A stretch of DNA of 64,000 nucleotides from Patescibacteria group bacterium (GTDB lineage Bacteria > Patescibacteriota > Patescibacteriia > Veblenbacterales > UBA10138): positions 15,435 through 79,434 of the forward strand of contig JBAZQK010000002.1 in NCBI GenBank assembly GCA_041645215.1, given 5' to 3'. Both the position numbers and the translations under genes were made by a program. Below are positions 1,191-63,707 of the stretch, in pieces (the first letter of the stretch is position 1; each line of letters starts with the position of its first letter). Below the pieces are notes generated by a model. It was not told where the DNA came from, did not search any database, and saw only the letters and a program-made list of their open reading frames with translations.

Positions 1191-1266
1191 TCCCTTAGTC
1201 ACTTGACCATTAATAGGCTAATAACTAGAATAATTAAGCATTATTATCGCTAGGCTTCGTGTGTTC

Positions 1267-1304
1267 GGCTGGGGGATAGTCTAAAAAGTTTCTGTTAAAA
1301 ACTG
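1267..1304 (+). repeat. tRNA-Gln 5-prime fragment (CTGGGGGATAGTCTAA) fused to a 21-nt copy of the leader of the distal tRNA-Gln(CUG) locus (AAAAAGTTTCTGTTAAAAAC)
   Basis: Direct sequence match to 1341-1357 and to the reverse complement of 61768-61788. Confidence 0.6.
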
Positions 1305-1340
1305 ACGCCATTTATTTGAGTGTTAATTCTCTGCCGGGCT

Positions 1341-1414
1341 GGGGGATCGTCTAATGGTAGGACTCAGGCCTTTGGAGCCTGCTATCATGGTTCGAATCCA
1401 TGTCCCCCAGCCAG
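1341..1414 (+). tRNA. tRNA-Gln (anticodon UUG), CCA encoded
   Basis: Manual fold: acceptor TGGGGGA/TCCCCCA, D-stem GTC/GAC, anticodon stem CAGGC/GCCTG with loop CTTTGGA, T-arm CATGG-TTCGAAT-CCATG, discriminator G then CCA. Confidence 0.85.
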
Positions 1415-1490
1415 GTAGAGAAAATGTAGTGGACTTCCCGCTGTAGCGGGACTATCATGCGTAGCCCCGTAGTTATGCGCTAGCATATAC

Positions 1491-1540
1491 TACTGGGGTT
1501 CGACTTGCCCCGCCATCGGCTTCGGATTCATGTCCCTTAG
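1491..1540 (+). repeat. Degenerate copy of tRNA-Gln 3-prime half (T-arm/acceptor-like TTCGGATTCATGTCCC)
   Basis: Similarity to TTCGAATCCATGTCCCCCAG of the upstream tRNA; pseudo attachment-site-like remnant. Confidence 0.4.
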
Positions 1541-1562
1541 AAACCACTTACTTATCTAAACC

Positions 1563-2994: not shown

Positions 2995-3273
2995 ATGCTA
3001 TATTATAAACATATGAATGAGCTAGAGCGTGCTCTTAAAGCTATAGCCAACAGGCGTCGCCTAGCCCTGATAAAATATCTCAATTCTCGTCGTGAAGCAT
3101 CAGTGGGGGAATTGGCCGAGGCCATCAAGCTTTCACTTAAAGCCACATCTAAACACTTGGTTATTTTGCATAGCGCGAGCATTGTGGAGCGTGAGCAACG
3201 TTCCCTCCTCATGTACTACCGTCTGGCCGAGCCTCTTCCTAGACCAGTCAAATTCATTCTCTCTTATCTCTAA
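2995..3273 (+). CDS. ArsR/SmtB-family HTH transcriptional regulator
   Basis: wHTH segment VGELAEAIKLSLKATSKHLVILHSASIV; ~90 aa. Confidence 0.65.
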   Translation: MLYYKHMNELERALKAIANRRRLALIKYLNSRREASVGELAEAIKLSLKATSKHLVILHSASIVEREQRSLLMYYRLAEPLPRPVKFILSYL

Positions 3274-3295
3274 TTCGCGCGAATAGGCGAATAGT
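3268..3295. promoter_or_regulatory. Second copy of the 28-bp repeat with perfect palindrome ATTCGCGCGAAT, between the ArsR gene and the downstream IMPase gene
   Basis: Direct repeat of 2952-2979; overlaps the regulator's stop codon. Confidence 0.45.
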
Positions 3296-3338
3296 TTAAA
3301 CCGCCAAAAGAAAAACTATAAAACGACAATATAATTTT

Positions 3339-4154
3339 ATGATAAATTTTAGCAAGCGGACAAAATTTTTACTGGAACTCTCCAAAAAAGCCTGCCGGAT
3401 AATGCTGAAATATTATAATCCGTGCGGGGTTGGTTATGTCATAAAAAATAAGAGCAGCGATTGGGGATTGGACGCCGTAACCAAAGCTGACATGGAGGTA
3501 AATAAAATGGTTTTGCGGGAAATAGAAAAACATTATCCAACTTATGACTTGCTAGGGGAGGAGATTAGCTCTTTTAAAAAAGGCCAAAAGCTGTTCGTGG
3601 TTGACCCGATTGACGGCACGCATATGTTTATAATCGGCGCGCCGTTGTTTGTTTTCTCCGCCGCGGTGGTTATAAATGGTAAACCAGTGGCTGGTGTGCT
3701 GGCTAACCCCTTAGCCAAAAGAACCCTACTGGCAGAATTGGACGGGGGCGCTTATTTGGTAGAACGTAATATTAAATTATCAGTTAGCAACCAGAAAACA
3801 TTCAATGGCTCGCTAATTCGTACTGGCTGGAAGGATTGCACTGCCGCTAAACTCCTGCACCGGCAAAATGCCCGTACACCTGAAGTTTATGCTGTTTGTG
3901 AATCTGCCTCGCTAATAGCTACCGGCGGGTTTGACGGTGACATCTTTATGGGTAATGCCGCCCATGATATCGCGGCGGTTAAAATAGTGGTGGAAGAGGC
4001 TGGTGGTAGAGTGACCAATCTTTGGGGACAAGAGCAAAAATACGACCGCGGCATTAAGGGCGCTATTATTACTAATGGCCATTTGCATAAAAAGTTAGTG
4101 GCGCTGGTAAAACAATCCGGCCTGCTAAAAACTTTTCAACCAGCCGCTAAATAA
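3339..4154 (+). CDS. Inositol monophosphatase family protein (IMPase/SuhB-like)
   Basis: VVDPIDGT motif and C-terminal AHDIAAVKIVVEEAGG. Confidence 0.7.
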   Translation: MINFSKRTKFLLELSKKACRIMLKYYNPCGVGYVIKNKSSDWGLDAVTKADMEVNKMVLREIEKHYPTYDLLGEEISSFKKGQKLFVVDPIDGTHMFIIGAPLFVFSAAVVINGKPVAGVLANPLAKRTLLAELDGGAYLVERNIKLSVSNQKTFNGSLIRTGWKDCTAAKLLHRQNARTPEVYAVCESASLIATGGFDGDIFMGNAAHDIAAVKIVVEEAGGRVTNLWGQEQKYDRGIKGAIITNGHLHKKLVALVKQSGLLKTFQPAAK

Positions 4155-4158
4155 TATC

Positions 4159-4186
4159 ATTCCTACATTCTGCAGAATGTAGGAAT
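4159..4186. promoter_or_regulatory. 28-bp perfect palindrome ATTCCTACATTCTGCAGAATGTAGGAAT, candidate operator upstream of the second ArsR-family gene
   Basis: Perfect dyad; core ACATTCTGCAGAATGT shared with 4524-4545. Confidence 0.45.
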
Positions 4187-4512: not shown

Positions 4513-4523
4513 CTAACAACATT

Positions 4524-4545
4524 CTAACATTCTGCAGAATGTTAG
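4524..4545. promoter_or_regulatory. 22-bp perfect palindrome CTAACATTCTGCAGAATGTTAG immediately downstream of the second ArsR gene
   Basis: Same 16-bp core as the upstream palindrome; preceded by tandem AACATTCT AACATTCT. Confidence 0.45.
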
Positions 4546-4709
4546 AGTGATTAAGATGATAAAGTTTCGTGCGCCCAAGCGTGCCATTAAAGGAAAAATT
4601 GTTGTTTTAATTTGACTAATCCATAAAAGCCTAAAAACGAGCTTTTATGGTAAATAAAGAGACTACCTGAAATTTAGGTAGTCCCTAAAAAATAAACAAT
4701 TCTTTTTTG

Positions 4710-8019: not shown

Positions 8020-8523
8020 ATGATTAAACTAGCACTGCAACGCACTGGCTTTACCCTGATTGAAGTTTTGGTAAGTGTGGCTATTGTAGCTATGCTGGCT
8101 ACGATCGTGGCGGTTTATTTGCTGCCCGCTCGCACCAAGGGGCGTGACGCCAAACGAAAGGTGGATATTTCGCAAATCGGGCGGTTCCTTTCAGCCGGTT
8201 GCTATATGCCTGACGCCGGCAGCGGTGAGTACGATATGGCTGATTTAGCAGGTGAATTAAAAGTTAAATATCCCGATTATGGAGGTTATTTGAGTAACTT
8301 GCCGTATGACCCTAAAACCGGCGATTCAATTAAAACCAACTATCGTTATGGTGTTACAACCGACGGCCGTAAATGCGCGTTATACGCGAATTTAGAAACT
8401 GATTCGGAGCCGATAACTTTGCCGAATCTAACAGCTCCCGCGCCGGGCGGCGGAAATGGCGTGCTGGCGGCGCCAGCTGTGGGTTGGAACGGAACTAATA
8501 AATATTTTCAATTTTCTAATTAG
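8020..8523 (+). CDS. Type IV pilin / pseudopilin
   Basis: Prepilin leader and cleavage motif G-FTLIEV followed by hydrophobic helix. Confidence 0.75.
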   Translation: MIKLALQRTGFTLIEVLVSVAIVAMLATIVAVYLLPARTKGRDAKRKVDISQIGRFLSAGCYMPDAGSGEYDMADLAGELKVKYPDYGGYLSNLPYDPKTGDSIKTNYRYGVTTDGRKCALYANLETDSEPITLPNLTAPAPGGGNGVLAAPAVGWNGTNKYFQFSN

Positions 8524-15660: not shown

Positions 15661-15725
15661 AGTTTGTTATCAAATTACCCCATTAGAACCTGTTTGTCGC
15701 CAATCCAAATTGGTACAGATAGTAA

Positions 15726-15890
15726 TAGGACTTACGCGCTGGCCGCTTGCCGGGCTGGCGGAGCCCGACCCCGCAAGCGGCTTTGGCCAATTTCTTCGTT
15801 AAAACCTCTGCTTGGCGTTCATCCCGCCAGGGCGGGACTCGCTCCAATGCTCGGTTTTGCCTCGAACTTGGCGCAAACGCGTAAGTCCTA
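15726..15890 (-). mobile_element. Structured MITE copy C (TAGGACTTACG TIR family), 165 bp, 5-bp TSD TTACT (plus-strand AGTAA at 15721-15725 and 15891-15895)
   Basis: 13-bp perfect TIR TAGGACTTACGCG/CGCGTAAGTCCTA; ~85-90% identical to copies at 27400-27565 and 53753-53919 with compensatory substitutions. Confidence 0.75.
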
Positions 15891-15903
15891 AGTAATTAAA
15901 CAA

Positions 15904-26434: not shown

Positions 26435-26562
26435 GCGGCGTTAATAAAACTTGGAAGCCGTAACGGCTTACTCCACCGTAGTCCTTAAAAAAGGTGAAGG
26501 AAGGCCGGAAGCTGTGGGGTATTATGGCGTAGTCCCGCAAAGCGGGACGAAGACGGATAAAT

Positions 26563-26767
26563 CCCGTTACATTTCCACGGGGTATTAGACGGACGCGGAA
26601 ATTGACCCCGTTAGAGATGCGGAACAAAGTGTAATTTGTAGGATGTTAATGTGTGCGGAGCGTATCTTACTATATGTTTCAGTACTGAGTGAATCTCTAA
26701 CGGGGTGAATCTGAATTTGCTGCGGTATCCCCGCGGCCAGACCGCGGGGTTTTTAAAATGTAACGGG
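26563..26767. mobile_element. Nested palindromic element (copy E2): outer TIR CCCGTTAC/GTAACGGG with flanking ATAAA(T/A); inner element 26606-26705 with TIR CCCCGTTAGAGAT/ATCTCTAACGGGG
   Basis: Seen directly; same architecture as 52174-52343. Confidence 0.55.
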
Positions 26768-27186: not shown

Positions 27187-27399
27187 TAAAAAATGGAAAA
27201 ATTATGCAGTTTTATGACGAAGTCATAGCTATCTTCATACCCCTGAAATCAACCTCGGGCCATATACGAGGTTGGTTTTTTGATAATATAAGGCCGCGGG
27301 GCTAATTTAAGTGTAACCCCGACAAATAAAGTGTCTGCTAATTATTACACAAAAAACTGTCCGGTTTTATAAAAAGCCACGACTTTATTGGTTTATAAT

Positions 27400-27565
27400 T
27401 AGGACTTACGGGTTTGAGCCAAGTTCGAGGCAAAACCGAGCATTTGAGCGAGCCGTAGTAAAACTACGGTGAGCGAAAAGCGGAGGTTTTAACAAAGAAA
27501 TTGGCCAAAGCCGCTTGAGGGGTCGGGCTGCGCCCGCCCTGCAAGCGGCAAGCCCGTAAGTCCTA
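27400..27565 (+). mobile_element. Structured MITE copy A (TAGGACTTACG TIR family), 166 bp, 5-bp TSD ATAAT (27395-27399 and 27566-27570)
   Basis: 13-bp perfect TIR TAGGACTTACGGG/CCCGTAAGTCCTA; internal hairpin CCGTAG/CTACGG covaries with CCCGCC/GGCGGG in copies B and C. Confidence 0.8.
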
Positions 27566-27717
27566 ATAATAACAAAAACATCAATTATAATGGGAGTAGC
27601 CGCTATTTAGGGATAATAAGAGTTTAAGCGGTATTTGCCTGATTTTAAAGACTATGTTAAACTGAGTATAATATCCCAAACGCTCAGTTATTTATACTAT
27701 AGACAAATATAGGTCAT

Positions 27718-28205: not shown

Positions 28206-29141
28206 ATGCTGCCGCACTTTGATGATTTTCTGCTTTCATTGCAGGTGAATAATTATTCTAAAGAGACGGTCTATAATTACGAGCGCGACCTTAAGGTGTT
28301 TGAATTTTTTTTGGTTAATGACATAAAATTGAAAAATTTTGCCAAAATTAATAAAAAAACCATAGAACTTTATAAGGCTTATTTGGCCTCCAGAGACCGT
28401 GAGACGGCGACTGGCAAAAAAAGTCATGGCCAACTAACAAGTTTTTCAACTAATAGATTTTTATCTTCTTTGCGTCGCTATCTTAAATACTTGATTGAAA
28501 TGGACCTGCCTACTCCCCTGCCGCCCGAGGCGGTTAAGCTGGTAAAGACTGAGCGAAAGCACCCGCAGGTGGCGGAATTCACTGAACTGGTGCGCTTAAT
28601 TGAATCACCAACTTGGTTAGAAAAAAATAAGGTAGTTGGTTTGCGCAATCGGGTGATGTTGGAGGTTTTATTTGCCACTGGTATGCGGATTTCCGAATTA
28701 ACCGGACTTAATCGGGTACAAATCGACGACAGCGGCCGTATATTTATAACGGGTAAGGGTAAAAAACAGCGCTTTGTTTATTTGACCGAGCGGGCCAAAA
28801 AATATTTGAATATGTATTTAGCTAAACGTCCAGATACACACCCGGCCCTATTTATTCCCTACCGGGGAGGGAATGCCGGTAAGAATAACAGACGTTTATC
28901 AACTAATTATTTACAAATGAAAATCAAACAATACCGCGAGACTTTGCGCATAAATGTGCCAACCTCGGCCCACTCCCTGCGTCATGGCTTTGCCACTTAT
29001 TTGGCGGAAAGCGGCGCTAATCCGGCAGCTATTCAAGTTTTACTCGGTCACGAATCGCTTGATACCACTACCCGTTATGTCCACGCCTCCGATAAATATG
29101 CCGAAAGTACGCATAAAAAATTTCATCCGTTAAAAACTTGA
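28206..29141 (+). CDS. Tyrosine site-specific recombinase (XerC/XerD-like)
   Basis: N-terminal SAM-like core-binding domain; catalytic box HSLRHGFATYLAESG...LGHESLDTTTRYVH. Confidence 0.8.
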   Translation: MLPHFDDFLLSLQVNNYSKETVYNYERDLKVFEFFLVNDIKLKNFAKINKKTIELYKAYLASRDRETATGKKSHGQLTSFSTNRFLSSLRRYLKYLIEMDLPTPLPPEAVKLVKTERKHPQVAEFTELVRLIESPTWLEKNKVVGLRNRVMLEVLFATGMRISELTGLNRVQIDDSGRIFITGKGKKQRFVYLTERAKKYLNMYLAKRPDTHPALFIPYRGGNAGKNNRRLSTNYLQMKIKQYRETLRINVPTSAHSLRHGFATYLAESGANPAAIQVLLGHESLDTTTRYVHASDKYAESTHKKFHPLKT

Positions 29142-30857: not shown

Positions 30858-32060
30858 TTAGGGCAGATAATCCAACGGGTTGATTGGTATGCCGTTGGCG
30901 CGCAATTCAAAATGCAAATGCGGACCAGTGGTTAATGATCCGGCGCCACGGGTGCCGGGCGTGCCCCCCACCGCGCCAATTACTTGTCCTTTGGCAACGT
31001 AAGTATCCTCGGTCACATCAATACGGCTGACGTGTCCATAGACACTGGCAAAACCGTCTTTGTGGATTATCATAATGTAGCTGTAACCTAAGCCCGCGTC
31101 TTTAGCTCGCGCGACATAGCCGGCCGCGGCCGCTTTAATCGCGCTACCTTGAGGTTGGGGAATGTCTATGCCCGGATGTTCAAAATAACGGCGAAAGATA
31201 TAGTTGGGATCGTTAAAATAGGTTGATATGCCCTTATAAGGTTTAACTGACCAAATAAAGTTGGTATCAAGCTGATCAAGCCGGCCGCCCAATTGCAAGC
31301 GTTGCCGAACTTCCTGCTCCATTTTTCTGATGTCGCTATTGGCTCTCTCCTGCTCCAAAATTGTTTGCTGCAATAGTGACTGGTACTTGCTTTCCGACAA
31401 TTTAGTTTGACGCAGTAACGACTCCTTAGTATCTTGCTGAGCCGAAAATTGAGAACGCGCTGTCTCCAGTTCGGTTTTAACCTTAAGCAACTGGCTGCGA
31501 TAATTACCTAAATCTTGTTGACGGTGTTCCAGTTGAACTTTGGCTGACTGAACGTTATTTATATTAAGCTGGAGCGTCCGTTGCAGTTCGGCTAGATAAT
31601 TTAACTCCTCAAAATACTGCCCTAACGAGTTATTTAAGGCAATAACTTCTAAAATGCCGCGCTGATCCGACCGATTCAACTGGCGCAATATTTCGCTGAT
31701 TTTAATTTTTTTGTCGCTGAGGTCGCGTTCTTTGCCGCCGATATCAAGGCTGACTGCTTGTATTTCCAAACTTACGGTATTCAAATTAAGCTCTTTGGTT
31801 TTAATATCCAGCTCGGCCCGGGCAATTTGATCATCTAAAATATTTAATTGTTTTTTTAAAGTTGAGGCTTGAGCTTGCTTTTGGGCAATGGCGTTTTGAT
31901 AAGCGTCCATTTGTTTTTTTAAGTCGCTAATTTTATCCTGCTTTTGCTGAATCTGATTTTTCAAATCATCAATTGAGACAGCCTTAACGTCGGGCGTCAG
32001 ATAAAAGCTTACCAAAGCCAAAACAAAAAATACCGCTGCCATTTTGGTTAATTTAATCAT
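30858..32060 (-). CDS. M23-family peptidase with N-terminal coiled coil (EnvC-like murein hydrolase activator)
   Basis: Signal peptide, long coiled-coil, C-terminal HPGIDI...GHVS...GPHLHFE LytM motifs. Confidence 0.75.
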   Translation of the reverse strand: MIKLTKMAAVFFVLALVSFYLTPDVKAVSIDDLKNQIQQKQDKISDLKKQMDAYQNAIAQKQAQASTLKKQLNILDDQIARAELDIKTKELNLNTVSLEIQAVSLDIGGKERDLSDKKIKISEILRQLNRSDQRGILEVIALNNSLGQYFEELNYLAELQRTLQLNINNVQSAKVQLEHRQQDLGNYRSQLLKVKTELETARSQFSAQQDTKESLLRQTKLSESKYQSLLQQTILEQERANSDIRKMEQEVRQRLQLGGRLDQLDTNFIWSVKPYKGISTYFNDPNYIFRRYFEHPGIDIPQPQGSAIKAAAAGYVARAKDAGLGYSYIMIIHKDGFASVYGHVSRIDVTEDTYVAKGQVIGAVGGTPGTRGAGSLTTGPHLHFELRANGIPINPLDYLP

Positions 32061-33505
32061 GATAAGACGCCGTGAGCCATTGTCAGACGGCGGGTGGCCT
32101 CTTCTTGGCCTAAGGCAAATAATAAACTAGGGACATCGGGTGATTGTTTTTCCCCGCTTAGCGCCACTCGCACCGGCCACAAAAATTCTTGATTGGTAAA
32201 CTGGTTAGCTTGTTTAATTTGCTCAAGCCGCTTTTGAATGTTGCTTAAACTCCACTCCCCCAGCGCCGCCGTTGAATTTAGCATTGTCTGAATAGCAATT
32301 AATGTTTTACCGGCTGAACCGTCGGGCGGAATTAACAGCCCCGACGAGGGCGCCGCATCAGCTTTAAAAAACCAGACCGCCGAATTATTGACATCGCCTA
32401 AAATCACCAAGCGCGGCTGCAAAATTTGCGTTAAGTTAATGGTGTCTTGGCGACCGCAACCGTATTGTTGGCCGAGTTTAAGATAAAATGGCTTAAGCAG
32501 ATTATTCAATTCAAGCACCGGCAAATTCTTGATGTAGGCGCTGTTAAACCAATTCAGCTTAGTTATATCAAAAATCGCCCCGGCTTTTTGGACACGCTCA
32601 AGATTGAACGTTTTAATTAAATCGGCGGTGGAAAATATTTCCTGATTATCAACCGGATGCCAGCCCAGTAGCGCCAAAAAATTAACCAACGCCGCCGGCA
32701 GGTAACCTTGCTCAATATAGGTGGCGAGCCAAACTGATGCGCCGTCTTTTCGTTTGGATAGCTTGGCGCGATTGGCATTAAGCACGTTTGACAGGTGAGC
32801 AAATTTCGGAATATCCCAGCCCAAAGCTTGATAAATAATAATGTGTTTAACAGTTGACGGCAGCCACTCCTCGCCTCTTATAATATGGCTTATTTGCATT
32901 AAGTGATCATCCACTACGTTAGCCAAATGATAAGTCGGGTAGCCGTCTGATTTTAACAAAACTTGTTCATCCACTGTTTTATTAGCTATCGTCATTGGGC
33001 CGCGCACTATATCATTGAATTCAGTGTGGCCGGCGGGAATTCGTAAACGAACCACGTTAACTTCGGCCCGGTTAATTTTAGCCGTGATGGCGCGGTGTGA
33101 TAAATTGGCACACTTACCGTCATAGCGGGTAGGCAGAGAGTTGCTTTGCTGTTGTGTTCTCAATTCTGTAAGTCGCTCAGCGGAACAAAAACAATAATAA
33201 GCCGCGCCTTTAGCAATCAGTTCGCTGGCATATGCTTTGTATAACTTGGTTCGGTCGGACTGGACATAGGGCCCATATTTACCCCCAACATCAGGACCTT
33301 CATCCCAGGATAAACCCAGCCATTTCAGCCCGTTAAGTATTCTTTCAAGGCTACCCTCAACCAGGCGCGTCTGATCCGTATCTTCAATGCGAATCACAAA
33401 TTGACCCTGGTGCTGGCGGGCAAATAAAAAATTATACAGCGCGGTGCGGGCGCCGCCGATATGTAGTTCTCCGGTTGGCGAGGGGGCAAATCTAACTCTT
33501 ACCAT
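32057..33505 (-). CDS. gltX: Glutamyl-tRNA synthetase
   Basis: RFAPSPTGELHIGGARTALYNF (HIGH) and KLSKR (KMSKS-like). Confidence 0.85.
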   Translation of the reverse strand: MVRVRFAPSPTGELHIGGARTALYNFLFARQHQGQFVIRIEDTDQTRLVEGSLERILNGLKWLGLSWDEGPDVGGKYGPYVQSDRTKLYKAYASELIAKGAAYYCFCSAERLTELRTQQQSNSLPTRYDGKCANLSHRAITAKINRAEVNVVRLRIPAGHTEFNDIVRGPMTIANKTVDEQVLLKSDGYPTYHLANVVDDHLMQISHIIRGEEWLPSTVKHIIIYQALGWDIPKFAHLSNVLNANRAKLSKRKDGASVWLATYIEQGYLPAALVNFLALLGWHPVDNQEIFSTADLIKTFNLERVQKAGAIFDITKLNWFNSAYIKNLPVLELNNLLKPFYLKLGQQYGCGRQDTINLTQILQPRLVILGDVNNSAVWFFKADAAPSSGLLIPPDGSAGKTLIAIQTMLNSTAALGEWSLSNIQKRLEQIKQANQFTNQEFLWPVRVALSGEKQSPDVPSLLFALGQEEATRRLTMAHGVLS

Positions 33506-33545: not shown

Positions 33546-33731
33546 CATCCTGCTTGCCCCGCCAACGGCGGTGGCTTGCCCCGCATTTGCGGAGGAACCA
33601 CAGTACTAGAAACTTCGTTTCAGTACATGGCAGGTTTATTTCAGGATCTCGGCATTGTTAAAAAATGCTTAGAAAGCCTTCATTTAGTATCAACCTCGGT
33701 AAATCCTGTATTAATAATAACAAACTGCGGT

Positions 33732-43487: not shown

Positions 43488-43560
43488 ATTGTTTCTTTAG
43501 GCTAGAGATTTGTTTATTTCACGCAATGTTTGCTGATATGAGAAGTAGTGAACGAAGCGA

Positions 43561-43634
43561 GGAAGGTTTTTTCCTGCGAGCGTTCATTCTTTTTTGAGGA
43601 AGGTTTTTTCCTGCGAGCGTTCATTCTTTTTTAA
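43561..43634. repeat. Tandem 37-bp repeat x2 (GGAAGGTTTTTTCCTGCGAGCGTTCATTCTTTTTT) forming imperfect hairpins
   Basis: Seen directly; second unit overlaps the 3-prime end of the minus-strand methyltransferase gene. Confidence 0.6.
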
Positions 43635-51948: not shown

Positions 51949-52173
51949 ATTTAAGTAAACCGCTATAACCTGATTAAATATTTAAGACTGCCAAAGTTTA
52001 ACATTTTTTAATATTTTTGGCAAGGCTAAATTGGTTTACCGCCTAAATAACCCTGAATTACGAAATACTTTTTCCCGTCATTCTTCAGCCGATTCCGCCA
52101 GCCGGCGGACAGCGGGAGGTATCCGCCGCCGTTCGCCGCAGCGAGCGGCGGCGGATAAAAAAAGACTATTTAC

Positions 52174-52343
52174 CCCGTTACACCCAGAATGCCCCACCCT
52201 TCAGGGTGGGGATGAACCCCGTTAGAAGTAATTCCAATGGCTGTCGGGATACTCCACCACCGGTGGAGACTTCTAACGGGGTGAATGGGAAATTAAAAAT
52301 CTTCCCCAAAAATGCCCCGTCCTTCAGGACGGGGCGTAACGGG
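52174..52343. mobile_element. Nested palindromic element (copy E4): outer TIR CCCGTTAC/GTAACGGG with flanking TTTAC; inner 65-bp element 52217-52281 with TIR CCCCGTTAGAAGT/ACTTCTAACGGGG
   Basis: Seen directly; arms carry hairpins GCCCCACCCTTCAGGGTGGGG and GCCCCGTCCTTCAGGACGGGGC. Confidence 0.6.
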
Positions 52344-53724
52344 GTTTACTAAGAGCGGCGCTGTAAATAACATTGGGGGCTTTTAGTAAATCATAGATTA
52401 AATTGTATTTTACAATATAGTAGGCGGTTTCGTTTTTAAGAGCGTAGCGATTGACTAGATTGTAAAATTGATCGGCGGCGGTCGCATGTTGTTTGTAAAT
52501 TTTAAGCTGCTGTTTGAGTTTAGCTTTTTCCAAGGTGGTTATTTGTTTGCCAGTCAGCTGTTGTTTTAATGATTTGACTCCGGCTAAATACGTGTTTTTT
52601 TCTTGTTGATAGAATTTTTTTAAAGTAACTCGGCTGGCTGACCAGTTATCCCCCCACTTTTCAAAAGCTTTAATGACACGGGCTAATCCACCGTTATAAC
52701 TAGCGGCCAAATAGGCGCCCAGTTTTTTATCGTCGGCCGCGCCGGCGTTCTTAATTGTCTGCGGCAAATGACTAAGGATATCGTCTAAATAGCCGATTTC
52801 CGCCTTAATCGCGTTATAAGGGTCGGTCATCCCCTGTTCAAAATTAGGATTAAGAACCAGTTCGGGGCGCCGCTTGACCATCAGTTTATAAGTTGATGGT
52901 ATAAACTGGGCCAGGCCGCGGGCCGAGGCGGTAGACTTGGAATAAGCAAAGGAAAAATGCCGGTTAGTCGCCAGCGTTACAAAAAAACGATCTAAAAATT
53001 CGGCCGGCTGACTGCTGGTGCGGCTGATATTGTCAGCATGCTCAATCGCGATAATTGATTTTACCAAAATTGGATCTATGACATCAATCAATAATTTATC
53101 GGGGTAAGCTTGCGATTTCACCCCTAAGGCGGCGATTTCGTCATAAACCGCGGTAATTTTAGTGGCAAAAAAACGCTTGCCCTCGTCAATAATCGCCGCG
53201 GTTTTTAAATAATCATGATAGGGCACGTAAACGGTGTTTTGTAATTTATATTGGGAGCGCGTTTTAGCGCCAAGGCTAAGGTAAATTGGATGAATAACCG
53301 CCACCACCAAAGCCTTGGGTTCGCCCGCCACTATATACTGTGAATTCACGCCGTTGTCATACTTAACTTTGATGTCATAGTTCCGGTTGTCATTAAGCGT
53401 TACCCGCCGACCTGATTTTAAACCGTTGACAAATACGATTTGATCTGCGACGGGCTGCCACAAAGCTAAAGTAACCGGTATGGGAGTGTTTTTACTTTTG
53501 ACCACAACCGGTTTAAATTTTGGATTGGTCAATTCATCGTTAACCCGGGCTTGCAATGTCATTTTGGCCGATAATATGGCTTGATATAACAAATTATCCG
53601 GCTCAACTTGCGCTGGCTTTGAATCAAGAATGTCTGAATTGTCAGCTTTAACCGCCAGCGGGCTAAGTGCTAACAAACCAATTGCCCAGCTTAGGCCGGC
53701 TATTTTTAAACTATGTAACATCAT
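52324..53724 (-). CDS. Lytic transglycosylase (SLT domain), secreted
   Basis: Signal peptide; SASARGLAQFIPSTY and AYNGG motifs. Confidence 0.7.
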   Translation of the reverse strand: MMLHSLKIAGLSWAIGLLALSPLAVKADNSDILDSKPAQVEPDNLLYQAILSAKMTLQARVNDELTNPKFKPVVVKSKNTPIPVTLALWQPVADQIVFVNGLKSGRRVTLNDNRNYDIKVKYDNGVNSQYIVAGEPKALVVAVIHPIYLSLGAKTRSQYKLQNTVYVPYHDYLKTAAIIDEGKRFFATKITAVYDEIAALGVKSQAYPDKLLIDVIDPILVKSIIAIEHADNISRTSSQPAEFLDRFFVTLATNRHFSFAYSKSTASARGLAQFIPSTYKLMVKRRPELVLNPNFEQGMTDPYNAIKAEIGYLDDILSHLPQTIKNAGAADDKKLGAYLAASYNGGLARVIKAFEKWGDNWSASRVTLKKFYQQEKNTYLAGVKSLKQQLTGKQITTLEKAKLKQQLKIYKQHATAADQFYNLVNRYALKNETAYYIVKYNLIYDLLKAPNVIYSAALSKPRYAPS

Positions 53725-53752
53725 ATTTATAATAACAAAATATAATTATAAG

Positions 53753-53919
53753 TAGGACTTACGGGGTTGAGCCAAGTTCGAGGCAAAACCGAGCAAGTGG
53801 TACGAGTCCCGCCATGGCGGGATGAACGAAAAGCGGAGGTTTTAACGAAGAAATTAGCCAAAGCCGCTTGCGGGGTCGTCCCTGCGCCAGCCCTGCAAGC
53901 GGCAAGCGCGTAAGTCCTA
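53753..53919 (+). mobile_element. Structured MITE copy B (TAGGACTTACG TIR family), 167 bp, 5-bp TSD ATAAG (53748-53752 and 53920-53924)
   Basis: TIR TAGGACTTACG/CGTAAGTCCTA; internal hairpin CCCGCC/GGCGGG. Confidence 0.8.
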
Positions 53920-53930
53920 ATAAGATTAAT

Positions 53931-58030: not shown

Positions 58031-58304
58031 AGCGGGATTATAGCAAAATGAAACATATTTACAACCCCGATGTAACCCGACGTAACATTGGGGTATCTGA
58101 TTTTCATTCTCCCAAGCTGTCCGCCCTCGTCCCGCTTAGCGGGACTTCCGCGGATTATGCTCCACGTCATTCATCCCCGCCGAATCGGCGGGGTATTCTA
58201 GCGAAAAATTCCGAGCTTGGCTAAGGGTTGACTTATTTAAATGTTGTGCTAAACTAGTACAAAATAAAAAAAGTATTATTTAAAACTGAATTAAGAGGCA
58301 AACC

Positions 58305-60750: not shown

Positions 60751-61284
60751 TCAATTCTGCGAGAGCTGCGAAAGATTGAGGCCAAAGAAAATAAAAATTA
60801 TATAAATAATAATCAAAAGTAGTAGCCCACCAACTATAATAGCAAAGGTTTGATTATTAGTGAGCCTCTCTAAGTGGTTCATTGGAGGCCTTTTAACAGT
60901 ACTCGTTTCTTTTGCAATATTCATCCTCTTATATCTATTATAGATTTCATCAAATTTTGGTTGTACGACTTTCAAATTTAAATATTGAGTAGCTATGCCA
61001 CCATTTTTATAAAGAACAAAAATCTCATCAATACTATAATTAGGATCGTCTATTTGGGGTAACTTAGCTAGTACGCCGACACCTGTTTTTATTTCTATTG
61101 CTTTCATCCCTTCAATTTTATCCAAAACAGCCTTTTCTCCCTTATCAAAAACAAAAGCTTTATGATCTGAATTGTATTTTGATTCTTTCCAATTAATCTC
61201 TTGTGTATTATTAAATAAAAGCCCCTCCTTTATTTTTTGAAGGATTTCCCAAATTTTATTATCGAATTTTTCTTCAGGAGTCAT
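60751..61284 (-). CDS. Hypothetical protein with C-terminal TM anchor
   Basis: ORF; single C-terminal hydrophobic helix. Confidence 0.35.
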   Translation of the reverse strand: MTPEEKFDNKIWEILQKIKEGLLFNNTQEINWKESKYNSDHKAFVFDKGEKAVLDKIEGMKAIEIKTGVGVLAKLPQIDDPNYSIDEIFVLYKNGGIATQYLNLKVVQPKFDEIYNRYKRMNIAKETSTVKRPPMNHLERLTNNQTFAIIVGGLLLLIIIYIIFIFFGLNLSQLSQN

Positions 61285-61320
61285 TTTATTTATATACCTC
61301 GGTCTCTCGATAACATATAT

Positions 61321-61497
61321 TCAAATCTGGGGGACATGGATTCTCCCTCGCTCCGACTCGGGCACCTGGGCGCTATGCACCATCCCGCCATAGCGGGACT
61401 CTCGCGCCCTTCGAATCCATTGTACTACCAATAGATATAAAAAAACAACAGACCAAGGCCTGATGCTTTTTTATGGCTGGGGGACATGGATCCCCGC
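61321..61497 (-). repeat. Two degenerate copies of the tRNA-Gln 3-prime end (CTGGGGGACATGGAT at 61327-61341 and 61483-61497) plus tRNA-like debris downstream of tRNA-Gln(CUG)
   Basis: 15-nt identity with the tRNA 3-prime end at 61698-61712; CATGATTACCGCGTC also recurs three times (61511, 61609, 61719). Confidence 0.6.
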
Positions 61498-61673
61498 CTA
61501 GCGGACGGGGTAAGTCAACTCATGATTACCGCGTCTCCCACACAAGGCTCGGGGGCTTGGATTCGAACCCCCGCAGTAGTCCCGCGGTGCGGGACACTAC
61601 GGGGCAAGCATGATTACCGCGTCCACCCCGCCACAGGCGGGGCAAGGCGCTCGCGTCCTATTCACCCCGCCAA

Positions 61674-62012
61674 TTATATCTGGCTTCTGTTAAAAACTGG
61701 GGGACATGGATTCGAACCATGATTACCGCGTCCAGAGCGCGGCGTCCTACCATTAGACGATCCCCCAGTTTTTAACAGAAACTTTTTAAAGGCGTTACCA
61801 CTATGCCAACTTTTAATTTGTTTTTCTCTTTGACGGGCATCTGTATAGCTTAAGTATTTTTCCGTATAAATCAAGTGCCATGGTCTAAATAATTTTGTCG
61901 ACGTAACTAAACCTTTATTATGTCTAGTTAAACGTAACTTGGGTTCTAACTTAGTTATTCCTATATAGTACCTACCAAAATTATTTCGTAGTATATATAA
62001 ATGACAAATCAT
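61674..62012 (-). CDS. Stand-alone small GIY-YIG nuclease (YhbQ-like); ORF has no stop before reading through the downstream tRNA-Gln
   Basis: YILRNNFGRYYIGITKLEPKLRLTRHNKG...RPWHLIYTEKY...REKQIKSW; domain ends ~61772, C-terminal 30 codons overlap the tRNA. Confidence 0.55.
   Translation of the reverse strand: MICHLYILRNNFGRYYIGITKLEPKLRLTRHNKGLVTSTKLFRPWHLIYTEKYLSYTDARQREKQIKSWHSGNAFKKFLLKTGGSSNGRTPRSGRGNHGSNPCPPVFNRSQI
61698..61767 (-). tRNA. tRNA-Gln (anticodon CUG), no encoded CCA; 13-bp leader/trailer helix
   Basis: Manual fold of reverse complement; anticodon stem CCGCG/CGCGG loop CTCTGGA; flanks TTCTGTTAAAAAC / GTTTTTAACAGAA complementary. Confidence 0.85.
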
Positions 62013-62156
62013 ATAATTGGCGGGACAAGTTAGACCTGTCCCGCTAAGCGGGACGATCTCCCAACACTACCAAAAATTTTAAAAAATGACGCCATAACTA
62101 AAATTAGTGCACCAAATCAATAACGACGCTTATTGTAAATGTTCGCCTATATAAAA

Positions 62157-63707
62157 TCAAACCTCCTCCACCACTCGCCCACCCAAAGTATTAACCACGC
62201 TCGACAATAAATCTCCGGTCGTGCCGCTAGCATTGCTACTAGCCTCCGGTACCACCGGCTCAATTATAAGCTGGGCGCCTAAAATTTCATTAACGACATT
62301 CTCAATCGTCAGTTTTATCTTTTTTTCTTTAACGCGCTCCTGGTGCAACTTATATTGAAACTGAACATAAAGCTTATTCTTTTCCAATTTTATCGGTTTG
62401 GCCACGCTTAAAATAAACGACAACGAGTGGTTGTATTCTTTAATTTTATTTACCACTGTGTCCCATTTGTCAATAATTTCTTGAACGCTCATCTTGCCGC
62501 TAATTTTAGAATCTGCCTCGGTGGCGGCAATTTTAATACCGGTCGCTGGCGGGGGCGGGGCCGCGGGAATTAATGGGGGCTTGAAAGGTACTTGAATTTC
62601 CGCCTCGTTCTTAGTTAGTTCGCACATTTTAATAACCGCTATTTCCAGCGGCAGCTGATAAACTTCGGCCTGGCGCCATTGGCCCTCTATTTCTAACCAG
62701 TCGCTTAACAAATTTTGCAGGCGCAAATAGCTTAATGGCGGCACTAAATTCATTAATTCATCGGCTATTTCATCCTCATATTCCACATTGGCTCCGGTAG
62801 CGGTTTTACCGCCGAGCTTTACCAGCAACAAATGGCGCAGCAATTCCAAAACCTGCTTATAAAAATAATTTATTTCGCCACCGGCGGATAAAAACTTGTT
62901 TATTAATTCAATGGCGGGGCCGGCTTTTTTATTGACAATGTCGGTTACAAATTCCAGCGCGATTTTGATATTGGAGTGAGGTAAAACTATCTGCGCCGCC
63001 TCGGCGGTAATTTTCTTAATACCCAAGCCCAACAGCTTGCCTAAATAACTTTCGGCGTCGCGGCTGGAACCGTTGGCCAAATAAGCCATATCGGTCAAAA
63101 CCGAGTCGGCAATCTCCACTTTTTCCTGACTGGCGATTTCGGCCAAACGTTTTTTTAACAGCGTTACCGATAACCGCTGAAAATCAAACCGCTGACAACG
63201 CGAGACGATGGTGGCGGGCAACTTGTGCGCTTCGGTGGTCGCCAAAATAAAAAAAACGTGAGCCGGCGGCTCCTCCAAAGTTTTTAATAGCGCGTTAAAA
63301 GCTTCGGTGGTAAGCATATGCGCCTCGTCAATAATCACTACCTTGTAGCGCGAGCGGGCCGTGCCATAAGGAACCTTGTCGCGAATTTCGCGAATATCAT
63401 CAATCCGGCGGTTAGAGGCGGCGTCCAGCTCAATTAAATCCAATGATCGGCCAGCCGTAATTTCAACACATGACAAACACTTATTGCAGGGCTCAAAATC
63501 ACCGTCTTGGCGATTTTCACAATTTATCGCCTTAGCGAGTAGCCTGGCCAAGGTGGTTTTACCCACCCCGCGCGTACCGCAAAACAAATAAGCGTGCGCT
63601 AATTTATTCAATTTAAGCTCATTTTCCAGGGTTTGCTTAATATGCTCTTGGCCCGCCACGGCTGCGAATGTTTGCGGACGATATTTACGATAAATAGTTT
63701 CGGTCAT
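62157..63707 (-). CDS. dnaX: DNA polymerase III subunit gamma/tau
   Basis: AAA+ Walker A GTRGVGKTTLARLLA, zinc module CNKCLSC, clamp-loader boxes. Confidence 0.85.
   Translation of the reverse strand: MTETIYRKYRPQTFAAVAGQEHIKQTLENELKLNKLAHAYLFCGTRGVGKTTLARLLAKAINCENRQDGDFEPCNKCLSCVEITAGRSLDLIELDAASNRRIDDIREIRDKVPYGTARSRYKVVIIDEAHMLTTEAFNALLKTLEEPPAHVFFILATTEAHKLPATIVSRCQRFDFQRLSVTLLKKRLAEIASQEKVEIADSVLTDMAYLANGSSRDAESYLGKLLGLGIKKITAEAAQIVLPHSNIKIALEFVTDIVNKKAGPAIELINKFLSAGGEINYFYKQVLELLRHLLLVKLGGKTATGANVEYEDEIADELMNLVPPLSYLRLQNLLSDWLEIEGQWRQAEVYQLPLEIAVIKMCELTKNEAEIQVPFKPPLIPAAPPPPATGIKIAATEADSKISGKMSVQEIIDKWDTVVNKIKEYNHSLSFILSVAKPIKLEKNKLYVQFQYKLHQERVKEKKIKLTIENVVNEILGAQLIIEPVVPEASSNASGTTGDLLSSVVNTLGGRVVEEV

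Follow-up and report, generated by a model that had tools for sequence, protein, structure and literature searches.

A GIY-YIG nuclease gene fused to a clamped tRNA-Gln lies inside an older tRNA-Gln copy in a Patescibacteria chromosome

Why should both tRNA-Gln genes of one chromosomal region be surrounded by broken pieces of tRNA-Gln? The question arises from 64,000 nucleotides of a Patescibacteria group bacterium (assembly GCA_041645215.1, contig JBAZQK010000002.1, positions 15,435 to 79,434), the whole of which we call the window. The original prediction, made from the letters alone, took the pieces for scars of integrase-mediated insertion and excision. We find instead that at one of the two loci an open reading frame (ORF) for a small GIY-YIG nuclease runs without a stop codon into an intact tRNA-Gln(CUG), and that the two together form a cassette of about 365 nt, bounded by 13-14-nt inverted repeats of the form CTTG-CCCCGCC-A/T-rich. 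This cassette interrupts an older tRNA-Gln copy within the part coding for the D loop; that copy retains its CCA and terminator, and the other locus is a derivative of the same structure after loss of the nuclease ORF.

Anatomy of the two tRNA-Gln loci

ARAGORN and Rfam identify exactly two tRNA genes in the window, both tRNA-Gln, at the places already read from the letters: tRNA-Gln(UUG) at 1340-1410 on the plus strand (CCA at 1411-1413) and tRNA-Gln(CUG) at 61767-61697 on the minus strand, whose CCA is not encoded. They are identical at 61 of 71 positions and score 61.3 and 62.7 bits against RF00005 (gathering threshold, 29). Rfam searches of the window at gathering threshold, and of both loci by E-value, returned nothing besides these two tRNAs. 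Exact tRNA k-mers of at least 12 nt occur elsewhere in the 64 kb only on the minus strand, within 370 nt downstream of tRNA-Gln(CUG):

61327-61343, minus strand: exact tRNA block of 17 nt, 3' end
61477-61491, minus strand: exact tRNA block of 15 nt, 3' end
61521-61535 and 61609-61625, minus strand: exact tRNA blocks corresponding to tRNA nt 34-49
61558-61569, minus strand: exact tRNA block, T loop

The 17-nt and 15-nt blocks are the two further copies of the tRNA 3' end that had been noticed before. In addition, a 23-nt segment, TAAAAAGTTTCTGTTAAAAACTG, is common to both loci without a mismatch (1282-1304 on the plus strand and 61788-61766 on the minus strand), for which we estimate a chance expectation of about 6e-5 in 64 kb. 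The tRNA fragments and the shared segment are real and far above chance.

The shared segment had been described as a leader sequence. At tRNA-Gln(CUG), hereafter locus 2, it is the 3' end of the nuclease ORF (62012-61674 on the minus strand), whose last codons, KKFLLKT, enter the tRNA. Residues 4-71 of the product match the Pfam family GIY-YIG (PF01541, E = 3.5e-13), and its closest solved structure is that of a UPF0213 protein (PDB 1ywl, E = 4.5e-5); no NCBIfam family matched the nuclease or the two unidentified ORFs adjacent to it. In an alignment of 25 homologues, Y6, Y16, G18, R27 and E63 are invariant and H31 nearly so, I17 being invariant or almost invariant as well. The coding nature of the segment was absent from the original prediction, as were a 5' fragment upstream of locus 2 (62064-62030), a perfect 14-nt inverted repeat and an extended acceptor helix of 20 bp at both genes. 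In the direction of transcription, locus 2 is composed as follows (L numbers, here and below, label the loci compared with the window, about 15 distinct DNA loci having been examined):

62132-62160, minus strand: sigma-70-like promoter match TTGATT-17-TACAAT, a weak match to consensus only, shortly past the dnaX stop and upstream of the outer 5' fragment
62030-62064, minus strand: outer 5' tRNA-Gln fragment TTGGGAGATC-GTC[CCGCTTAGCGG]GAC-AG-GTCTAA, that is, tRNA nt 1-15 with an inserted GC hairpin at 62054-62038
62011-62029, minus strand: left cassette inverted repeat CTTG-TCCCGCCAATTATAT (full form CTTGTCCCGCCAATTATAT), overlapping the ATG of the nuclease ORF
61768-62012, minus strand: GIY-YIG nuclease ORF, about 82 aa before the tRNA, its frame open on to 61674 with no stop
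61685-61780, minus strand: inner intact tRNA-Gln(CUG) with its clamp, a 13-bp leader/trailer helix TTCTGTTAAAAAC / GTTTTTAACAGAA that covaries in 12 loci
61665-61679, minus strand: right cassette inverted repeat ATATAATTGGCGGGG, conserved as A/T-rich plus TTGGCGGGG in L243-L259
61474-61664, minus strand: 'unit A', the outer 3' part of the split tRNA-Gln, from alignment to the inner tRNA
first part of unit A, minus strand: D-loop junction TGAATAGGAC, with TGAATAGGACGCGAGCGC before the first hairpin
61646-61625, minus strand: CTTG-hairpin in the anticodon loop of unit A
61624-61609, minus strand: exact block GGACGCGGTAATCATG of unit A
61608-61569, minus strand: CTTG-hairpin in the T stem of unit A
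61568-61558, minus strand: T loop of unit A (GTTCGAATCCA)
61557-61492, minus strand: 66-nt insert in unit A with another tRNA block and a hairpin
61491-61474, minus strand: 3' end of unit A, ATCCATGTCCCCCAG-CCA
61439-61472, minus strand: intrinsic-terminator-like hairpin and T run, a consensus-type call, closing the composite transcription unit
61327-61430, minus strand: 'unit B', a tRNA-derived 3' remnant past the terminator, in which ACAATGGATTC pairs with GAATCCATGT, with internal GC hairpins, ending GAATCCATGTCCCCCAG

Unit A aligns to nt 19-71 of the inner tRNA, with insertions after nt 33, 49 and 56, which places the cassette in the D loop of the outer tRNA-Gln copy. The cassette ends (62024-62011 and 61679-61666) are complementary over all 14 nt, and L248 carries a compensatory change in these repeats relative to the window (CCAGTTAT/ATAACTGG). 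The clamp and the acceptor stem of the inner tRNA, which is the working gene, form 20 bp with 100% complementarity. The fold of the 646-nt transcript is far more stable than those of shuffled sequences (z = -9.6); in its minimum free energy structure the inner cloverleaf and clamp are both formed, and the outer 5' fragment is base-paired to the 3' end of unit A. The same 15-nt outer 5' fragment, TGCGGGATCGTCTAA, stands at this position in L244, L246, L250, L252, L254, L255 and L259; the L248 ortholog of the fragment is without the GC hairpin. Unit B is probably an older layer, and the sequence that follows it is homologous to the sequence after the outer 3' end of L248.

Locus 1, around tRNA-Gln(UUG), has the same parts without the nuclease gene, of which a 23-nt remnant is the sole trace:

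1203-1231, plus strand: sigma-70-like promoter match TTGACC-17-TAGAAT, a consensus match only, upstream of the composite
1267-1284, plus strand: outer 5' tRNA-Gln fragment GGCTGGGGGATAGTCTAA, tRNA nt 1-15 with one mismatch, 94% identical to the gene start
1282-1304, plus strand: 23-nt remnant TAAAAAGTTTCTGTTAAAAACTG, comprising the GIY-YIG ORF end, the clamp leader and the first tRNA bases, 100% identical to 61766-61788
1327-1422, plus strand: intact tRNA-Gln(UUG) with its own clamp TTCTCTGCCGGGC / GCCAGGTAGAGAA, 90% complementary with one G·U
1423-1540, plus strand: outer 3' part, beginning with the D-like AATGTAGTGGACT
1436-1451, plus strand: hairpin in place of the anticodon arm, then CTATCATG
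1460-1497, plus strand: long hairpin at the T-stem site, then GTTCGA
1504-1525, plus strand: CTTG-hairpin, then ATTCATGTCCCTTAG

The 5' fragment joined to a copy of the other locus's leader, and the degenerate 3' copy after the gene, were both correctly noticed from the letters; within the latter, TTCGGATTCATGTCCC is 88% identical to the tRNA. Its last element, ATTCATGTCCCTTAG, pairs with the outer 5' fragment by way of two G·U, and the hairpin positions in this 3' part agree with those of L248 and locus 2. Each shell also agrees with the variable region of its own neighbouring gene (CTATCATG at locus 1, GTAATCATG at locus 2).

The composite and its clamp in other lineages

A homologue search with the read-through ORF returned 66 clusters (44-76% identity), a count that is a lower bound and biased toward ORFs running into a tRNA, the query having contained the tRNA-encoded tail. 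Among them, 61 carry the translated tRNA D-arm, SSNGRT, at about residue 84 and thus read into a tRNA-Gln; both anticodons are represented, 32 clusters encoding S[GE] (CUG) and 25 encoding F[GE] (UUG). DNA was obtained for eleven homologue proteins (L243, L244/245, L246/247, L248, L249, L250/251, L252, L254, L255-258 and L259). In all these loci the parts follow one order: TGCGGGATCGTCTAA, then CTTGCCCCGCC-A/T-rich, ATG and the GIY-YIG ORF, the clamped tRNA-Gln, A/T-rich-GGCGGGG, and T(G/T)AA(G)TAGGAC with the outer 3' part. Terminal inverted repeats of 10-14 nt are found also in L244, L246, L248, L250 and L255. The composites of L255-L258 are identical to each other and give no information on polymorphism. 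Altogether, the composite is present at no fewer than 12 independent metagenomic loci, and the layout recurs across dozens of uncultured bacterial lineages. Its genomic context varies, the composite lying after dnaX, GluRS, FtsX/HicA or NADAR genes and at both isoacceptor genes.

A second type of insertion, seen in L183 and L184, has the ORF at the anticodon-stem position (nt 30), its 5' fragment carrying a hairpin in the D loop, and in L218 and L240 the GIY-YIG gene adjoins the tRNA with a 17-bp clamp. The two insertion positions go with two GIY-YIG subfamilies.

The clamp is clearly under selection at the RNA level. Across an ungapped alignment of 13 loci, leader and trailer form a 14-bp helix in which 90% of the cells are paired and 13 of the 14 pairs change on both sides; none of 500 shuffles reaches the observed values, and no slid register comes close. 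The pairs comprise 142 Watson-Crick, 16 G·U and 1 A·C, an excess of G·U over A·C that is expected from selection on the tRNA-sense transcript and not on a DNA palindrome. The clamp is an RNA structure. Within the transcript the helix runs coaxial with the acceptor stem, and its leader strand consists of the last codons of the nuclease ORF. The stems of the inner tRNAs are 98-100% paired across the same 13 loci, so these genes have a full cloverleaf with covariation.

A random sample of 118 tRNA-Gln loci, obtained from metagenome contigs by scanning with the tRNA 5' half, served as a control set; that half being widely conserved, the scan matched many phyla and gave about ten informative loci. 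Only L218 and L183 among the 118 have such a helix. Further control loci have tandem 5' fragments, or 3' fragments past a terminator. Among nuclease-less tRNA-Gln loci, L239 and L123 carry tandem 5'-fragment arrays TGGGGGATCGTCTAATGGGAAGAACC… with a period of about 125 nt, in L123 some 380 nt upstream of the gene, and downstream of the genes in L123, L137, L158 and L162 there is a conserved remnant past the terminator that ends GACCGAaTCCCTgTCCCCCAGCC and whose own 5' end pairs with that 3' end. A scan of genome contigs with a 15-nt pattern gave chance matches only, in unrelated phyla.

Several features point to insertion. In many of these lineages dnaX lies directly upstream of tRNA-Gln, and L153, L219 and L210 present this site empty, with a spacer of 40-120 nt and no ORF, fragments or clamp. 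Other loci are nested further: L252 has, at 3230-3470, a complete tRNA-Gln(CUG) with a 19-bp clamp within the T loop of the cassette's own tRNA-Gln, and L259 has, at 1400-1660, a clamped tRNA-Gln(UUG) in the anticodon region of the outer copy, the nuclease-adjacent cassette tRNA being degenerate.

The outer copies form a continuum from pristine to decayed. That of L246 is identical to the inner copy at 54 of 54 positions, that of L255 has all stems intact with a sequence of its own, that of L244 contains one precise 20-nt hairpin, those of L249 and L254 contain two hairpins each, and those of L243, L248 and both window loci are heavily rearranged. Outer and inner copies disagree at paired positions in L243, L249, L250 and L255, each remaining self-complementary, as would be expected if a resident gene had been invaded by a cassette with a different tRNA-Gln allele; outer-specific sequences include the acceptor TGCCGGG/CCCGGCA (L249/L243) and the anticodon stem CATTC/GAATG (L255). 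As a matter of annotation, ARAGORN calls the outer 3' part of L246 together with the right inverted repeat (3338-3403) as a second, D-armless tRNA-Gln, which is an artefact.

The small GC hairpins in the outer copies begin with the terminal motif of the cassette, CTTG[TC]CCCGC, and end GCGGGR; they may be read as cargo-less miniatures of the cassette, its two ends joined. They occupy three fixed tRNA positions across loci (anticodon loop 33/34, T stem 48/49 and T loop 56). Their presence varies between near relatives, as in L244 versus L246, and L248 is without both the 62054-62038 hairpin and the anticodon hairpin of the window. In the related 6-kb loci the motif is found inside composites only and on the tRNA strand only. 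The stems of these hairpins and the inverted repeats of the cassette are almost all perfect, so that comparing G·U with A·C counts does not tell constraint on DNA from constraint on RNA there.

Outside the tRNA-Gln loci, the window has the cassette-end motif only in two tandem CTTG-tagged GC hairpins at 33553-33596 on the plus strand (CTTGCCCCGCCAACGGCGGTGG and CTTGCCCCGCATTTGCGGAGG). They lie in a structured 226-nt gap directly upstream of, and antisense to, the GluRS gene (32057-33505).

Origin of the composite and its surroundings

We propose, with a probability of roughly 0.55, that these loci arose by serial insertion of a selfish nuclease-plus-tRNA replacement cassette into tRNA-Gln, each locus having become a nested 'Russian-doll' gene. 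This proposal starts from what was observed, namely the nested anatomy and its recurrence, empty sites, an RNA clamp and catalytic residues that are conserved, and from it we infer the mechanism. A selfish cassette of this kind would tolerate the breaking of an essential tRNA gene because it supplies a replacement. It would spread, now or formerly, by repair of a nuclease-initiated break, in a homing-like process with co-conversion of the flanks, and repeated insertions and deletions would produce the layered 5' and 3' fragments. Gene conversion may intermittently homogenise the inner and outer copies and so refresh the shell. The clamp and hairpins may prevent misfolding between the real tRNA and the redundant pieces, and may also limit translation of the nuclease, since cleavage by RNase P would leave an mRNA without a stop codon.

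A number of observations weigh against this proposal. The small protein does not appear to resemble a site-specific homing enzyme: at about 82 aa it is UPF0213/Slx1-like and consists of the catalytic domain only, what lies beyond being translated tRNA, without the C-terminal DNA-binding region of GIY-YIG homing endonucleases. The intact inner tRNA would regenerate any target within the tRNA. No target-site duplication was found, the 20-nt hairpin of L244 having no duplicated flank when compared with L246 and with its own inner copy, and we found no filled and empty pair within one species. The dnaX–GIY-YIG–tRNA-Gln synteny spans lineages with only 44-47% identity in DnaX and 51-61% in GIY-YIG, and so old a synteny fits long vertical inheritance under selection no less well than repeated homing. 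Conservation over such distances of the 15-nt outer 5' fragment, of the TGAA(G)TAGGAC junction and of the hairpin positions would hardly be expected of neutral debris. RNA-level constraint acts on the clamp, and possibly on the inverted repeats, so that part of the architecture may be functional rather than selfish. Finally, the tail-containing homologue query colours the estimate of how often the ORF runs into a tRNA.

In another reading the outer shell is a functional RNA, a tRNA-shaped scaffold that would be matured to a second (split or spliced) tRNA-Gln or would couple translation of the nuclease to tRNA-Gln maturation, the GIY-YIG protein possibly acting on RNA. It would account for the fact that each inserted module is placed in a loop, with a helix of its own to close it, for the RNA-level selection evident in the clamp, and for the complementarity of the outer 5' fragment and 3' end, which holds across 350-600 nt in 7 of 9 loci, among them L243 and L249, whose outer pieces differ from the inner copy, and locus 1, where the pairing is through G·U. 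The intact outer stems of L255, with their own sequence, agree with it, as do the persistence of the architecture and the CTTG-CCCCGCC motif between lineages at 44-47% DnaX identity, the promoter-like and terminator-like sites that bracket the composite, and the z-score of its fold. GC-rich complementary segments beside the 5' and 3' pieces recall the split tRNA genes of Nanoarchaeum. A role in RNA has also been suggested from the fusion of an Slx1-like domain to a TrmH-type enzyme (PMC1564403). Set against this, G18-G19 are missing in all ten loci of the D-loop type, which have the junction T(G/T)AA(G)TAGGAC; a hairpin breaks the anticodon loop in window locus 2, L244, L249 and L254, and removing it from L249 leaves a 9-nt loop; and the anticodon stem is unpaired in window locus 2, L248 and L254. 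The closing helices are 13-14 continuous bp, which is no bulge-helix-bulge; a group I intron signal is missing even at E up to 10; the canonical tRNA-Gln inside, whose anticodon is the same, would make a second one redundant; and the decay continuum argues against a uniform constraint. We regard a functional shell as unlikely overall, though it is the main rival. Its stronger form is more doubtful still: a bacterial 'tRNA-in-tRNA' RNA that would hold helix-closed modules (nuclease mRNA, whole tRNA-Gln and mini-hairpins) in three loops (D, anticodon and T) of an outer tRNA-Gln scaffold, to be freed or joined by an undescribed RNA pathway, possibly through the GIY-YIG protein. Two known types of intron were searched for and rejected. 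Covariance-model searches of 61200-62150 and 1150-1650 gave no Intron_gpI match at E up to 10, and inspection for an archaeal-type bulge-helix-bulge intron found none, the closing helices of 13-14 continuous bp being accompanied by an internal loop of about 6x6 by the D stem.

Other readings need neither a functional shell nor a selfish cassette. A single local duplication or template switch at tRNA inverted repeats, beside a resident GIY-YIG housekeeping gene, could have been followed by vertical descent, the hairpins being generic GC-rich stem-loops of the kind that this AT-rich genome puts into many non-coding RNAs. The long-lived dnaX–GIY-YIG–tRNA-Gln synteny and the identities fit such descent, template switching at quasi-palindromes can yield leader/trailer complementarity in one step, and similar (G)TCCCGC-N3-5-GCGGGA(C) hairpins occur in other repeats of the window, whose paralogous copies swap hairpins too. 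It is hard to extend this explanation to a composite found in different genomic contexts and at both isoacceptor genes, with two insertion positions matched to two GIY-YIG subfamilies, empty sites in related lineages, nested dolls, outer and inner sequences that differ in four loci, and a CTTG motif confined to composites in related loci; we give it a low probability. Far less credible is the explanation of the original prediction, that the fragments are attL/attR-type duplications from integration and excision by a tyrosine integrase at the tRNA 3' end. tRNA genes are well known as sites of integration, downstream of tRNA-Gln(CUG) the tRNA 3' end occurs in three direct copies, and the absence from L248 of a neighbouring ORF (60751-61284) indicates indel traffic beside the locus. 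The integrase expected next to the tRNAs is missing, Pfam scans of 70 ORFs having found none within about 10 kb of either locus, and the only tyrosine recombinase in the 64 kb (28206-29141 on the plus strand; Phage_integrase with an Xer-type SAM-like N-domain) is 27-32 kb from the loci. Between the 3'-end repeats, spaced 150-220 nt, lie hairpins and a terminator and no cargo genes; upstream 5' pieces and internal pieces interleaved with hairpins are not the pattern of att duplication; and the same architecture elsewhere, at 12 or more other loci, accompanies a GIY-YIG gene and not an integrase. Searches of 2.9 M viral contigs gave no match to the tRNA 3' end, nor did viral contigs match either cassette junction. 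What is supported of the earlier claim is its general sense, that the fragments most likely are by-products of DNA insertion into a tRNA gene; their origin as integrase att scars is not.

The surroundings of the loci are those of a core chromosome. The neighbours on one side are pterin dehydratase, NUDIX, Exo_endo_phos, ArsR-type HTH, inositol phosphatase and Nramp genes, and on the other DnaX, HAD, alpha/beta hydrolase, SDR and a beta-CASP protein; the intervening 60 kb encode MreB/C, PBP2, GreA, a LysRS-class enzyme, SerRS, GluRS, Alr, Ddl, PriA, Def and Fmt. Inversion of this interval through the shared segment had also been suggested. Inverted repeats that could serve such an inversion measure 72 nt at 86% and 23 nt at 100% identity, and the only other assembly of the organism, L001, is collinear with and 100% identical to window positions 64000-61654, where it ends inside the shell; its isomer is that of the window. 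Cumulative GC skew peaks at about 44 kb, where gene orientation switches, which places the tRNA loci on opposite replication arms, each co-oriented with replication. The Xer-like recombinase gene (28206-29141) is near the 30-46 kb zone in which the skew plateaus and peaks and gene orientation switches; these features suggest that the window spans a region of replication-fork convergence.

The ORF at 60751-61284 on the minus strand, next to unit B, encodes 177 aa with a hydrophobic C-terminus and no family match. In L248, the closest relative, which has no such ORF, the HAD hydrolase gene comes immediately after the composite, and the indel amounts to about 0.9 kb. Past the right edge of the window, L001 has another small GIY-YIG gene (1954-2241) and a 181-nt segment (8159-8339) that is 97% identical to window positions 52169-52349.

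The window contains further repeats. A sequence of about 180 nt, at 15720-15894 (minus strand), 27393-27572 (plus strand) and 53746-53923 (plus strand), is bounded by inverted TTAGGACTTACG.G / C.CGTAAGTCCTAA; its copies are 87-96% identical, bear different internal hairpins at the same position and have no Rfam match, and could be a MITE (a miniature transposable element with inverted repeats) or an undescribed structured RNA. Structured intergenic repeats with CCCCGTTAGA…TCTAACGGGG pairs lie at about 200-320, 26560-26720 and 52272-52294. A 25-nt hairpin, CCCGCCGAATCGGCGGGGATGAATG, occurs in two copies of inverted orientation (228-252 and 58168-58192), and a 37-nt unit, GAGGAAGGTTTTTTCCTGCGAGCGTTCATTCTTTTTT, is duplicated perfectly in tandem at 43559-43632, where convergent gene blocks meet. 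Palindromes ATTCCTACATTCTGCAGAATGTAGGAAT at 4156-4186 and 4521-4551, together with a 28-nt repeat at 2952-2979 and 3268-3295, flank two ArsR-type HTH genes and are likely terminators or operator sites.

Relation to known systems and meaning

Among the nearest known systems is phage T4 SegB, a free-standing GIY-YIG homing endonuclease whose gene likewise stands beside tRNA genes without an intron ribozyme, and which spreads by cutting the nuclease-less allele with co-conversion of the flanks (PMC2330249), as is proposed here for the cassette. SegB-type enzymes have a C-terminal DNA-binding region and a phage host, whereas the cassette protein is a bare domain of 82 aa, chromosomal and of predicted activity only; moreover, the cassette ORF is fused to a complete tRNA, bounded by inverted repeats, and placed inside another copy of the same tRNA. 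The protein itself belongs to the minimal UPF0213/Slx1-like GIY-YIG family, whose stand-alone members have about 85-95 aa and conserved catalytic residues (PMC1564403; PDB 1ywl). A survey of 2006 described a prokaryotic Slx1-like GIY-YIG domain fused to a TrmH-type tRNA Gm18 methyltransferase, and a part in RNA metabolism was proposed there (PMC1564403); the papers searched do not describe the tRNA-Gln fusion context, and a search of the literature for the GIY-YIG/tRNA-Gln arrangement, within the searchable library, found no description.

Integrative elements that target tRNA genes also preserve tRNA function after insertion and leave partial tRNA copies as direct repeats. The cassette differs from them in having no integrase, a whole replacement tRNA instead of a 3' segment, a length of about 0.36 kb, fragments on both sides that include 5' and internal pieces, and insertion at the D loop or anticodon stem. 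Group I introns that lie within tRNA genes of Patescibacteria, probably the same phylum, likewise interrupt a loop, sometimes with a nuclease ORF (PMC13011429). Their enzymes are of the HNH, LAGLIDADG and PD-(D/E)XK types, neither tRNA-Gln nor GIY-YIG being mentioned (PMC13011429), and the cassette, unlike these introns, has no ribozyme core, is inserted in the D loop or at nt 30, where theirs lie at 33-37, and contains a full tRNA. With REP/RAYT systems, MITEs and GTAG/CGTC-tagged REPs (repetitive extragenic palindromes; PMC3733652) the cassette hairpins share a 5' tetranucleotide tag (here CTTG), GC palindromes, strand specificity, the lack of a target duplication and a single associated nuclease gene. 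They differ in that the partner is a GIY-YIG nuclease and not a Y1/HUH transposase, in being nearly confined to tRNA-Gln-derived sequence, and in having a full-length form with a tRNA.

Split, multi-intron and permuted tRNA genes are found in Archaea, in Nanoarchaeum and in Thermoproteales. In the split tRNAs, GC-rich complementary segments can likewise draw the 5' and 3' pieces together, and short inserts occur at D-loop, anticodon and T-loop positions; the present composite is bacterial, has no bulge-helix-bulge, often has defective outer copies and contains the intact same tRNA. We know of no splicing endonuclease in bacteria. None of the systems compared unites these elements: a nuclease ORF and, fused to it, a clamped replacement tRNA, both lodged within a split copy of that tRNA.

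These loci have practical consequences for annotation, as gene callers yield 'proteins' of 110-190 aa with translated-tRNA C-termini and tRNA finders may call pseudo-tRNAs, as ARAGORN does in L246. Assemblies also break at such loci, L001 being one that ends inside the shell. With its covarying pairs, the 14-bp clamp on the tRNA precursor makes one ask how tRNA is processed in these bacteria with reduced genomes. Should the proposed origin be true, a selfish nuclease gene can occupy an essential tRNA gene by bringing a clamped replacement, leaving nested shells of dead tRNA behind, and the UPF0213/Slx1-like proteins, which are widespread and have no assigned biology, would gain a concrete genomic behaviour and a candidate substrate, namely tRNA-Gln DNA or CTTG-tagged hairpins. 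If it is the outer shell that is functional, Patescibacteria would possess a bacterial counterpart of the split and multi-intron tRNAs of Archaea.

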